From Candidatus Yanofskybacteria bacterium (GTDB taxonomy: Bacteria; Patescibacteriota; Minisyncoccia; 2-02-FULL-40-12; IGHO2-01-FULL-4-A): a stretch of DNA of 64,000 nucleotides. This document shows positions 18,235 to 21,119 of this stretch, piece after piece (position 1 is the first letter of the stretch; each line of letters opens with the position of its first letter). The notes under the pieces were generated by a model. The model saw only the letters and a program-made list of their open reading frames with translations, made no database searches and was not told where the DNA came from. A program made the position numbers and the translations under genes. The stretch spans positions 2,567 to 66,566 of the forward strand of contig JACPNJ010000003.1 in the NCBI GenBank assembly GCA_016185545.1, in the 5' to 3' direction.

Positions 18235-18559
18235 CCCGCTCAAATTTTTTGGCAAAATCATTGACAAAAGTATATATTAGTATAAGATGTGAGAAGTTTC
18301 TTCTTAAGCTAAATTGGGGGGTTATAATATGTTCTTGCTAAGAATTTTACTGGATGTAATTAGAGAAAATGTCCGGAAACCATTTCGTTTATTTCTCTTC
18401 ATAATAATCTCACCGTTTTTGCTCATACGTGCAGGAATATTATATCTAGTTTGCTGGTGGCATGATATAACCGCTGAAACAGATTATATTTTCTTTTTTA
18501 GAAAGCATCGCTAGGCCATTAGGCCTAGTTTTTTACTTATGCCAAAAAATTTGAGCGGG
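18235..18559 (+). mobile_element. inverted-repeat-bounded cassette 1 inside a 23S insertion: CCCGCTCAAATTTTTTGG ... CCAAAAAATTTGAGCGGG flanking promoter plus small-ORF unit on the strand opposite to the rRNA
   Basis: Perfect 18-bp inverted repeats at 18235-18252 and 18542-18559; TTGACA (18261-18266) then 16-17 nt then TAAGAT; GGGGGG RBS; ORF 18314-18514. Confidence 0.6.
18314..18514 (+). CDS. small 66-aa protein with two predicted transmembrane helices separated by a basic loop (RENVRKPFR); candidate holin/type I toxin-like membrane peptide
   Basis: ORF track; own promoter and RBS; hydrophobic-basic-hydrophobic architecture. Confidence 0.45.
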   Translation: MGGYNMFLLRILLDVIRENVRKPFRLFLFIIISPFLLIRAGILYLVCWWHDITAETDYIFFFRKHR

Positions 18560-18787
18560 TCTGACGTAGGTCTCTGAGGATTCTTGGGATTCACTCCCAA
18601 GTCTTTCCTGCTGATTTTCTGCACCGGATGCATTGTCACCTTTTCGGGTAGCACCGGATACTAACAGACGTTCCAGCATATGGTCAGATTTTATAATCGC
18701 CCTCTTGTTTGCCAACTGCTTGTTGGCGGTAGCAGAATCTACGATTATAGTTATCGCCGTCGTTCACTGGCGCTTCGGGCGTCACCA

Positions 18788-18872
18788 CTAGTAACTGGTT
18801 ACTAGTTTCTAGTTGCTGGTTTAAATCTTTACCAGAAACTAGATACCAGAAACCAGCTACCAGCAGCTCCAC
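18788..18872 (-). repeat. CTAG-rich hairpin insertion in 23S (ccactagtaactggttactagtttctagttgctgg ... ccagaaactagataccagaaaccagctaccagc)
   Basis: Inverted CTAG repeats seen directly between conserved GGTGACGC...CCGGTGCTGGAACGTTAA blocks. Confidence 0.6.
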
Positions 18873-19019
18873 CGTTAACGTTCCAGCACCGGACAAGCGT
18901 CACCCTGTATACAGCGCCTTTCGGCTTAGCACAGAGTTGTGTTTTTGATAAACAGTCGCCAGGGGTTCGTTAGCTGCGAGCGCAAATCACTCCGCTGTCG
19001 CTCCGTAATTTGCGCTCGC

Positions 19020-19140
19020 AGCTAAACTCAAAATGTAAAGTTCAAAATGCAAAATTATAGATGTTTCAAAATTTGTGTTACAAATTTTGAAACTCCATCA
19101 TTTTAAATTTTGGTTTTTTAATTTTAAATTTAGCTGATTG
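19020..19140 (-). repeat. hairpin element family B copy 1 (caaaatgtaaagttcaaaatgcaaaattatagatgtttcaaaatttgtgttacaaattttgaaactcc...) in 23S helix-63 region
   Basis: Long inverted repeat; related to 21120-21250. Confidence 0.55.
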
Positions 19141-20523
19141 CGAAGCGAAAGCGAAGCAATCTGCGCTAGGCCTTATACCGAAGGTACGGCCACTTGTTTG
19201 CCGAGTTCCTTAGCCAATAATCACCCGTTCGCCTTAGTGCGCTTACACTAGCCCACCTGTGTCGGTTTTAAGTACGTTTTGTACAAAAATAATCTTAGAA
19301 GTTTTTCTTGGAAGGCTCTTCACTGGAATTCTCCGGTTACCCGAAATTTCTTCAAATTCGTATTTTGACATTCAAGTCAGCCGCCGGATTTTCCAAACGG
19401 CAATCCTAGAATCCAAAAACGGAAATCCAATAATCCGCTCCAGCTTATATCCTCCGTCGCTCCATCGTTTTTTGCACAAGGGCCGGAATATTAACCGGCT
19501 TAGCATCGGCTTCCCACGCCCAAAGGCGCGGTTATCCTTAGCGTCGCCTAACCCTCCGGTGATTGACATTGCGGAGGAAACCTTAGGCTTTCGGCGGCGA
19601 GGGGTCTCACCTCGCTTGTGGTTACTCATTCCAACATTTTCTCCTCCAAGCGCTCCACCCCGACTCGCGTCGTGAGCTTCGCAGCGGCTTGAAGTGCTCC
19701 CCTACCACAGCGCGCGCAGCGCGCAAGTCAAAAGTTTATCAAGTTATAAAGTTATAAAGTTTTTGGATTTACTTTATGAACTTTAAGAACTTTTAACTTT
19801 ATGAACTGCGTGCTACGCACGCCATCCACAAATTCGGTACTATGCTTAGCCCCGTTGAATCTTCGGCGCCACTTTCCTCCCTCCTTCGCTCACTGCTTCG
19901 CGCAAACTACGGAGGACAAGCGCCCACTAAAGGGAACTTGTCCTTCCGAAGCTCCTTGCGGAGCAAGGAGCGAAGGAGGATCGAGTAGTAAGCTGTTACG
20001 CACTTTTTAAATGATGGCTGCTTCTAAGCCAACATCCTACCTGTCTAAGGAAAATGACTTCCTTTAACACTTAGCATAAATTTAGGGACCTTATTTGGTG
20101 GTAAACGGCTAATCCCGTCGCGACCGTGAAGCTTTGCCCCCACGGTCTCACTACCATACATTACATAGAGGTATTCGTAGTTTGTTTGGTAGGCCTACCA
20201 TTGCTGGCACGGCGAACCATTCAGAGCTCTACCCCCTCTACTACTATATGGCGCTGCCCCTAAAGGCATTTCGGGGAGAACCAGCTATTACCGGGTTCGA
20301 TAAGCTTTTCACTCCGACCCACAGCTCATCCGATGATATTGCGCTATCAACCAGTTCGGACCTCCACCCATCTTTCGAAGGGCTTCATCCTGGCCATGGG
20401 TAGCTCACCCGGCTTCGGGTCTTTTACAAGCGATTCCCGCTCAAATTTTTGGACTTTTGACATCATTCTGTTTGTTTGCTAATGTCAAGATACATTTTGT
20501 TTTTTAACAAAACGAGGTAAACT

Positions 20524-20745
20524 ATGAATTTTGCGGATTTCTTTTACTATAACGGGGCATTACTGATCCTACTCACAGCTATTAGCCTGTCTATCTGGGG
20601 CATATATGTTGTTACCAAATCTAAACGAGCAATAAAAAGAATCATCGGTTGGCTGGTAATTATCGTCTGTGTGCCATATTCACTATTGAGCTTCTATTAT
20701 TATTTAGAAACTGTCCTGAGACCTTGGCTCCATAGTATTCTCTGA
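20524..20745 (+). CDS. small 73-aa protein, two predicted transmembrane helices with basic loop (KSKRAIKR); same architecture as 18314-18514
   Basis: ORF track; good RBS; opposite strand to the rRNA. Confidence 0.45.
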   Translation: MNFADFFYYNGALLILLTAISLSIWGIYVVTKSKRAIKRIIGWLVIIVCVPYSLLSFYYYLETVLRPWLHSIL

Positions 20746-20809
20746 ATAACACTACATCCAATTTTCAAGTCGCGTCTTCATGGACCGACTTTTTTATTTA
20801 GAGTTTGGC

Positions 20810-20965
20810 TGAATAATGCCTTATAGCACCGTCAAAATTGTGTGATTGCATGGTCGGCGAGCAGTATAATAGTAAAGCACTGCGAGGTGAATCCACGCTT
20901 TCAACGGAGCGACGCAACCTCGCTGGGGTTGCTAGCGGTGATAGAAGATATTATTCAGCCAGACT
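20810..20965 (-). repeat. repeat element C copy 2 (flanked by ggctgaataat / attattcagcc)
   Basis: See 9165-9320. Confidence 0.6.
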
Positions 20966-21119
20966 CAAGCTAAACTCAAGTCCAAAAATTTGAGCGGGTA
21001 ATACGCGCTTTTAACACTCGGTTTCCCTACGACTCCGTGCTCTCGCACTTAGTCTACAGCTTGTAAAAACTCGTTGGATCATTCTTCAATAGGCACACCG
21101 TCGCACTACGCTACCGCTT

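Follow-up and report, generated by a model that had tools for sequence, protein, structure and literature searches.

We analysed a window of 64,000 nt from Candidatus Yanofskybacteria contig JACPNJ010000003.1 (coordinates given without a locus label are positions in this window), and in particular two inserts in its 23S rRNA gene, cassettes 1 and 2, which an earlier note had described as inverted-repeat (IR) cassettes, each with a promoter and a small membrane-protein gene on the strand opposite the rRNA. The full-length Rfam match to 23S rRNA lies on the minus strand, beginning at 22508 and ending at 17267; domain V/VI exons go on at ~15441-15341 and 15017-14568, the downstream exons align by BLAST to E. 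coli rrlH (Ec 2477-2577, 2576-2782 and 2809-2884), and the 5′ and 3′ strands of helix 1 pair 14540-14561 with 22495-22516. We assigned helix numbers and intron boundaries by aligning the gene with that of E. coli and with relatives that lack the introns. Related loci (L013, L046, L082, etc.) were retrieved in a genome scan and a metagenome scan with the cassette arm sequence as probe, and the taxon names of the related metagenome-assembled genomes (MAGs) were taken from the record titles. Features are collected in Table 1, where the cassette sites of relatives are mapped onto window coordinates.

Table 1. The 23S rRNA gene, its cassettes and the sites occupied in relatives (window positions unless a locus is named; ORF, open reading frame; SD, Shine-Dalgarno sequence; IVS, intervening sequence)
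Feature	Position	Strand or orientation	Remarks
23S rRNA gene, true extent	14548..22508	-	~8 kb including ~5 kb of insertions
Putative group I intron hosting cassette 1 in its P8 loop	18189..18740	-	552 nt, just 3′ of H69, E. coli ~U1923
Cassette 1 (325 nt), IR shell and antisense mini-gene	18235..18559	+	
Cassette 1 promoter-side IR arm	18235..18257	.	pairs with 18537-18559; intron P8 stem in rRNA-sense RNA
Cassette 1 sigma70-like promoter, TTGACA-16-TAAGAT	18261..18288	+	10/12 consensus match
Cassette 1 ORF	18329..18514	+	61 aa from ATG 18329, or 66 aa from TTG 18314
Cassette 1 predicted intrinsic terminator	18510..18536	+	hairpin 18510-18529 (8-bp, GC-rich), then TTTTTT; -14 kcal/mol, z=-3.4
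Cassette 1 terminator-side IR arm	18537..18559	.	
Cassette 2 (563 nt)	20436..20998	+	loop of domain II hairpin E. coli ~641-656, insertion ~654/655
Cassette 2 promoter-side IR arm	20436..20456	.	21 nt, 100% complementary
Cassette 2 putative promoter, TTGACA-17-TAATGT	20457..20485	+	read from sequence; position conserved across family
Cassette 2 ORF	20524..20745	+	73 aa; SD GAGGT at 20514-20518, 5 nt before ATG
Cassette 2 predicted terminator hairpin and T-run	20767..20800	+	-11.6 kcal/mol, z=-3.2
Element C, separate structured repeat	20801..20980	+	nested between cassette 2 terminator T-run and right IR arm
Cassette 2 terminator-side IR arm	20978..20998	.	
Element C, second copy	9161..9327	-	77% identity; intergenic, outside rRNA gene, after 1227-aa ORF
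Collapsed remnant or empty cassette, CCCGCTCAATTTTTGAGCGGG	16480..16500	.	21-nt hairpin
Site A	cassette 2 hairpin	antisense	at least 7 different cargos in relatives
Site B	21925-22364		window instead has sense 23S_rRNA_IVP IVS
Site C	17539-17858		
Sites D, E	~15160-15200, 16480-16500		two loops of LAGLIDADG-containing intron-like units
Site G	P8 of cassette 1 host intron		
Intergenic hotspot	between mechanosensitive-channel-like gene upstream of 23S and pyrophosphatase gene		
DUF3800-VII cargo	L120 562-656, L131 5196-5290, L133 3778-3872 (also L144)	antisense to rRNA	in 23S group I intron

Cassette 1 is bounded, as had been noted, by CCCGCTCAAATTTTTTGG (18235-18252) and its exact reverse complement (18542-18559), and its extended arms reach 23 nt with 96% complementarity. 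The promoter and GGGGGG ribosome-binding site proposed for it were likewise recovered, with a -35 box at the same spacing to the IR as across the family described below and the GGGGGG at 18317-18322, 7 nt ahead of ATG 18329; the ORF is longer than expected from shuffled sequences (p=0.0095). The insert that carries cassette 1 matches the full Intron_gpI model (RF00028) at 18202-18733 with 39.4 bits (E=1e-8), under the gathering score of 50 because the 325-nt insert sits in P8. The Rfam alignment assigns the cassette arms to P8, directly before the S element GAAGAUAGAGUC, and the host intron is precisely missing, with contiguous exons, in L125 (exon junction 5725|5724) and L091. On sequence criteria, the match to the core (P3-P9, R and S elements) and the absence in relatives thus identify 18189-18740 as a group I intron.

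The start of cassette 2 moves by one nucleotide, from the 20437 first given to 20436, and the IR pair that bounds it is real. In the rRNA-sense fold, the IR arms pair over 21 bp and close the cassette, their stem stacking on the native hairpin. The ORF again exceeds the length found in shuffles (p=0.038). Two helices had been claimed for both peptides; by Kyte-Doolittle scanning the cassette 2 product has two clear predicted transmembrane (TM) segments and a basic loop, whereas a single TM segment is predicted in that of cassette 1. Of the sizes originally given, 66-73 aa, the upper one stands and the lower one depends on a TTG start. The claim that both cassettes sit in 23S insertions also needs qualification, since cassette 2 occupies an rRNA hairpin and cassette 1 is nested in the intron. 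Lying in P8, cassette 1 would leave with the intron and an RNase III stem is not needed there, so that the excision stem once proposed for both is plausible for cassette 2 only.

Cassette 2 also carries element C, as reported earlier, and the second copy confirms it as a repeat. The element, ~170 nt long, has its own 39-nt inverted arms (20793-20831 / 20936-20974), a fold z-score of -5.75 and a conserved core containing TATAAT; the sequences on either side of its intergenic copy, CTTCTCAAAAAATT / AATTTTTTGAGAAG, recall the cassette arms. An Rfam E-value scan matched no family to cassette 2 or element C.

The two cassettes are alike only at their ends, their interiors and peptides being unrelated, and this turned out to be the pattern of a larger family. 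The 15-mer core of the arms has four exact occurrences in the window, against 0.6 occurrences expected at ≤2 mismatches, and the genome and metagenome scans yielded 31 cassettes with paired IRs, ~25 of them distinct, mostly from Candidatus Yanofskybacteria. In the shell common to nearly all of them, CCCGCTCAAATTTTTGGAAAC-TTGACA(AAA) forms one side and the other consists of a GC-rich hairpin and TTTTT(T)ATTTCCAAAAATTTGAGCGGG, where the T-tract is fused to the complementary arm TTTTTTATTTCCAAAAATTTGAGCGGG. Arms measure ~20 nt, in nearly all cassettes the TTGACA lies ~22 nt inside one of them, and a -10-like hexamer follows ~17 nt past the -35 box. Interiors are mutually dissimilar, except for identical copies from separate samples, and a 23S gene contains up to three copies (contig JACPNK010000006, with L046 and L082). 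The suggestion of a repeated, apparently mobile family of miniature elements is thus borne out by ~25 distinct cassettes with common ends, promoter and terminator signals.

A variant shell with arms CCCGTCTAAGTTTTTAGAC / GTCTAAAAACTTAGACGGG was found, antisense and at the 23S site of cassette 2, in L125 (7131-7293) and L127 (4107-4269). It has the TTGACA box, ~90 nt of cargo without an ORF and a terminator, and complementarity is kept through changes in both arms; this CCCGTCTAAG variant indicates that the family is wider than the probe used. Seven other loci (L121, L123, L124, L128, L134, L137 and L147) contain exact 19-nt matches to an arm but yielded no partner for it, and the lone arm of L123 and L137 is followed by a gene with an SD and ATG at its start; they may be solo arms or a promoter-associated use of the arm sequence. 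The matches in L072 (Moraniibacteria) were discarded as unrelated to the cassettes, since they consist of the 3′ end of a tRNA and a hairpin after it, and a scan of viral contigs returned only two single-arm matches, which we took as chance.

The cargo carries clear coding signals across the family as a whole. An ATG ORF of 40-101 aa, read in the promoter direction, takes up the space between promoter and terminator in 22 cassettes; the longest such ORFs exceed those of shuffled sequences (Fisher p=2e-23), and 19 of the 22 have an SD (GGAG/GAGG/AGGA) 4-13 nt upstream. Codon usage, compared among frames with stop codons skipped because stops in alternative frames bias the comparison, was best of the six in the annotated frame in 13 of the 22 cases (binomial p=8e-6), and against composition-matched stop-free ORFs the family gave a Stouffer Z of 8.7, to which the two ORFs in the window add little. 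Shared promoter and terminator, long ORFs and SD sites thus agree with the idea that these stem-closed inserts are antisense transcription units. Other cassettes lack an ORF, namely the 148-nt one of L098 and the variant shells of L125 and L127, and a 183-nt cassette matches the Rfam motif DUF3800-VII on the promoter strand with 51.5 bits (gathering score, 36.2). DUF3800-VII is a terminator-followed motif of unknown function (PMC5737381), and a role as cassette cargo may explain the genomic context of this orphan.

These data bear on the possibility that the cassettes are non-coding, i.e. stem-loop expansions, palindromes of the IVS or miniature inverted-repeat transposable element (MITE) type, or genes for antisense small RNAs (sRNAs) that affect the processing of rRNA or introns, with incidental ORFs. 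The ORF sequences are not conserved, some cassettes hold only an sRNA or nothing at all, and both window ORFs give weak codon signals, all as such a reading would have it. Nevertheless, the length bias of promoter-direction ORFs, the correctly spaced SD sites, the codon usage of the family and the fit of the ORFs to the promoter-terminator interval argue against it, and we regard it as improbable.

Homologues of the cargo proteins were looked for widely. The window peptides had none in sets of 5.8 G and 1.84 G proteins, whether in word-indexed searches or, for the 73-aa peptide, in an exhaustive phmmer search (no match among the 1.84 G representatives), the 101-aa cargo of L125 retrieved only itself, and neither the window peptides nor 18 other cargos showed a significant Pfam, PADLOC or PHROG family. 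Hence, of the homologue hunt suggested at the outset, the part on the inverted repeat succeeded in other genomes and metagenomes and the part on the peptides did not. The earlier note had also named the conservation of repeats alone as an outcome that would count against it, and between related cassettes only the repeats are indeed conserved, together with the possession of an ORF.

In relatives, cassettes occupy several sites within the 23S gene and its introns, and an intergenic hotspot. The idea that rRNA helices are the only targets therefore does not hold, because copies also lie in intron loops and in the hotspot. All clearly oriented cassettes within the 23S gene and its introns are antisense (6 sites, ~18 distinct cargos; one-sided p=0.016, calculated on sites), whereas the intergenic copies occur in both orientations. 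Pairing of the arms differs as well: 96% of positions are Watson-Crick pairs inside 23S and 87.5% in intergenic copies (Fisher p=0.0015).

Cargo at a given site is replaced and has not simply diverged. Flanks are 98-100% identical between L046 and L098 and 88-96% identical between the window and L132, while the alignment scores of the cargos in these two pairs are at the level of shuffled sequences (z -1.0 to 1.8); cargos were compared by z-tests on local scores, given that ~70% gapped global identity is the random baseline. Unrelated cargo between near-identical flanks indicates replacement. Empty forms exist too: L141 and L146 have cargo-less shells of 55-59 nt at site B, and the remnant hairpin in the window, directly 5′ (rRNA sense) of the group-I S-element-like UAAAGAUAUAGUC, lies exactly where L013 and L082 have full cassettes. 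A further form of site B is seen in L125 (7900-7927), which is empty and has a small native hairpin, CCCGGC-GAAA-GUCGGG, where others have CCCGCUC…GAGCGGG cassettes; host helix sequence, or else a target preference, may thus account for the CCCG/CGGG pairs at the outer end of the repeat.

Turnover at fixed sites could also result from homing, in which a near-palindromic empty shell would be cut in trans by a homodimeric endonuclease, such as a single-domain LAGLIDADG protein of the same 23S gene, and repair would copy the cargo in. The lack of target-site duplications (see below), the palindromic empty forms and the replacement of cargo at fixed sites would all suit this mechanism, as would the two LAGLIDADG ORFs of the window (15582-16193 and 16566-17174), the second of which lies ~66 nt from the remnant hairpin; the LAGLIDADG enzymes of the Candidate Phyla Radiation (CPR) are mostly single-domain homodimers (PMC11270868). 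However, endonuclease genes are absent from the cassettes, there is no link between any LAGLIDADG protein and the shell sequence, and L082 has cassettes at the remnant site without an adjacent LAGLIDADG ORF. Attractive as a means of movement, homing would account for mobility only and not for function, and we consider it quite unlikely.

In all, our analysis shows, as far as comparison of sequences can, a conserved shell, cargo with coding or sRNA signals, occupation of multiple sites, antisense-only insertion in rRNA, cargo replacement and empty forms. The window cassettes probably belong to a family of stem-closed, self-contained mini-gene cassettes of Candidatus Yanofskybacteria, in which the ends are constant and the exchangeable part appears to comprise the -10 box, the 5′ untranslated region, the SD, an orphan ORF or sRNA and the terminator hairpin. 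The window peptides are most likely accessory or selfish small membrane proteins, judging from their predicted features. Beyond this, it is possible, and we propose it tentatively, that the family represents an unrecognised class of mobile element, in which a constant expression shell residing in rRNA and intron loops swaps orphan small-protein or sRNA cargo by shell-directed recombination, with expression inversely gated by rRNA transcription.

Such an element might work as follows. The arms would pair in the pre-rRNA as a ~20-bp helix that extends a terminal loop (P8 for cassette 1, the 641-656 hairpin for cassette 2), which would make the insert structurally neutral. Cassette 1 would be removed with its intron by splicing, and cassette 2 would probably be trimmed like an IVS, where RNase III could act. 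Sense copies in rRNA would be purged, because the cassette terminator would halt rRNA synthesis, and only antisense ones would persist; the promoter-terminator pair would keep antisense transcription within the insert. The essential, conserved rRNA gene and its introns would offer a safe harbour with long homologous flanks, and cargo could be exchanged either when conserved shell ends of 27-30 nt recombine or when the flanks mediate allelic replacement. Transcription of the rRNA would oppose expression of the cargo, both by collision and through the perfectly complementary pre-rRNA or intron RNA, so that production of the small proteins might be largely confined to times of low rRNA synthesis.

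Several observations weigh against this interpretation. The promoters, SD sites and terminators are predictions from consensus sequences; the -10 box of cassette 2 matches at just 3/6 positions, for which reason the promoter scan did not list it, and the codon usage of neither window ORF is the best of six frames (z=0.9 for cassette 1 and 0.8 for cassette 2). As the cargo proteins have no homologues, purifying selection on them cannot be measured, and their hydrophobicity is partly expected from AT-rich composition alone. The orientation counts are not phylogenetically independent, and retrieval of loci with the IR as probe biases the sample towards filled sites and one shell subfamily. G·U pairs in the arms are evenly divided (5 vs 5), and this lack of strand asymmetry means that the data do not show which strand's RNA is under selection for pairing. 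As for movement, the flanks of 26 cassettes revealed no target-site duplication, TA adjoining the left end in 7/26 and the right end in 11/26; no cargo was present at two different sites among the cassettes found, and no recombinase or transposase gene was found near the rRNA gene. Neither the window nor the loci examined contained a cognate autonomous element or a transposase with the shell ends.

The membrane peptides had been likened to holins and type I toxins, and a type I toxin-antitoxin-like addiction module would be compatible with the position of the cassettes: the hydrophobic peptide would be the toxin and the pre-rRNA or intron RNA the antitoxin, so that loss of transcription or of the locus would free the toxin. 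The peptides are small and hydrophobic, ~10 of the 22 cargos having TM segments or being hydrophobic by hydropathy, and the location sets each gene in cis-antisense to a very abundant complementary transcript. The likeness is one of architecture only, though, as none of the cargos matches a toxin, holin or defence family. Pfam, PADLOC and PHROG detected no homology to type I toxin families (Hok, Ldr, TisB, Ibs, Fst and others), and for holins PHROG and Pfam gave no match and the surroundings are an rRNA gene, not a lysis cassette. About half of the cargos (~12) are predicted to be soluble, some are sRNAs, the intergenic copies have no rRNA antisense partner, and the hydrophobicity that suggests a toxin is in part compositional. 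Strong, unsequestered SD sites are, besides, atypical of type I toxins. An addiction module is thus unlikely as a general explanation, and a toxin or addiction role may at most apply to the hydrophobic subset.

An artefact of assembly or binning, with chimeric contigs or mis-joined repeats, can hardly be credited. Two points might suggest one: a perfect 42-nt tandem duplication in the window 23S is suspicious, and a pair of related contigs has been assigned to bins of unrelated taxa; yet the shell recurs at the same rRNA positions in independent assemblies (GenBank MAGs, JGI metagenomes and ENA Hainich groundwater), and identical cassettes come from different samples. The duplication (18063-18146) lies in a highly conserved domain IV exon (E. 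coli ~1955-1996), and the 42-nt stretch is single-copy in L082 and L091; the duplication stems either from misassembly or from a genuine lesion or insertion in H71.

The closest known relatives of these cassettes in terms of location are rRNA IVSs (Salmonella H25/H45, Leptospira, Coxiella; some with 23S_rRNA_IVP, PF05635), which likewise sit in a terminal helix loop, as does cassette 2, have a long closing stem and are presumably removed from the mature rRNA. The 21-23-nt arms of the cassettes, 96-100% complementary, form just such a stem in the rRNA-sense fold, and the window has a classical IVS with a sense IVP ORF at 21926-22356. Known IVS ORFs, in contrast, lie on the rRNA strand without a promoter or terminator of their own, whereas the cassettes are antisense and self-contained. 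The cassettes further differ in having one conserved end sequence at many sites, exchangeable cargo and copies in intron loops and intergenic DNA, and the site of cassette 2, E. coli ~654, is neither H25 nor H45.

Mobile elements offer other points of comparison. Correia/NEMIS elements of Neisseria and other MITEs are short, non-autonomous and bounded by terminal IRs, with ends that contain promoter elements, and their transcribed copies fold into a hairpin that RNase III can cleave. The cassettes are similarly short, foldable to a hairpin and equipped with terminal IRs and promoter-bearing ends. Correia elements, however, contain no gene, duplicate a TA target and measure ~100-155 bp, while the cassettes have no consistent target duplication, a promoter-SD-ORF-terminator cargo and a strict orientation in rRNA. 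Mobile insertion cassettes (MICs; e.g. MIC231 of Bacillus cereus) share their IRs with IS231, are moved in trans by its transposase and generate target duplications. With MICs the cassettes have in common the flanking IRs, the absence of an internal transposase, several copies and passenger genes unrelated to transposition, but they lack the target duplication, are much smaller and reside inside structured-RNA genes, and no cognate insertion sequence or enzyme is known for them. Phage morons are autonomous promoter-gene-terminator units inserted between phage genes, and resemble the cassettes in having their own promoter and terminator and a small accessory gene of varying identity at a fixed position; they have no IR shell and do not occur in rRNA or introns. 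Integron cassettes share with those described here exchangeable, mostly orphan small genes, a conserved folded recombination-like sequence and diversity at a fixed locus. Yet they have one attC at one end, are usually promoterless and form arrays next to intI/attI, whereas here IR arms lie on both sides of the cargo, no array is seen, and no integrase was found among the neighbouring ORFs. Finally, antisense His-Cys box endonuclease genes drive the mobility of nuclear rDNA group I introns (PMC9548176), and these too are protein genes in a peripheral intron loop opposite the rRNA strand. Cassette 1, by contrast, encodes a 61-aa orphan with bacterial signals, in an IR shell also found outside introns. 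No system in this comparison has all three of the features found here: an antisense unit of promoter, ORF and terminator, a single conserved shell in many loops of structured RNAs, and orphan cargo that can be exchanged.

The broadest survey of rRNA insertions in CPR bacteria describes introns, homing endonucleases, IVP and 'uncharacterised' inserts, with no mention of antisense units, of promoters or of inverted repeats (PMC11270868); a literature search for antisense genes in bacterial rRNA IVSs, or for IR-bounded promoter cassettes in Patescibacteria, found nothing relevant. Our analysis shows that part of these 'uncharacterised' insertions can be read as an organised system in which each antisense mini-gene is self-contained and its orphan cargo exchangeable. 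If expressed, the mini-genes would give the single essential rRNA operon of reduced genomes a second role, as a platform that carries accessory small-protein and sRNA genes, would explain the strict orientation of some insertions, and would represent natural insulated transcription units, antisense within rRNA and ribozymes. They would also give a genomic home to an orphan DUF3800-associated RNA motif, and the shell would serve as a simple probe for hidden small proteins in metagenomes, where gene callers mask rRNA genes.

The window 23S also contains other insertions. The two LAGLIDADG_2 ORFs mentioned above are on the minus strand between 17267 and ~15445, in tandem intron-like units. A copy of GCTTATAACGGNGGA precedes each unit (17276, 16318 and 15258), each terminates in a hairpin plus AAGATATAGTC, and the third has no ORF. 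The IVS at site B encodes, in sense, a 117-aa 23S_rRNA_IVP protein (PF05635, 1.7e-31; weak bAvd-like match) and is bounded by a different repeat, a CTAGT-rich 40-nt inverted repeat, of the same type as the ORF-less hairpins at 18786-18864 and 15158-15190; relatives have CCCGCTCAAA-type cassettes or empty shells in its place. The insertion at 17578-17870 has 20-nt inverted repeats (17579-17598 / 17851-17870) and, on the rRNA strand, a 70-aa charged ORF (17604-17816) with no family match, and at this site relatives have a group I intron with a DUF3800-VII cassette. AT-rich perfect hairpin expansions at 18976-19170 and 21106-21262 share AAAATTCAAAA-type repeats, contain neither ORF nor promoter and gave spurious matches to microRNA precursors in the Rfam E-value scan. 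Outside the rRNA gene, a LOOT RNA (RF03000, 69.5 bits) lies on the plus strand at 40950-41073; LOOT and the DUF3800 motifs are orphan structured RNAs from one and the same discovery paper (PMC5737381).

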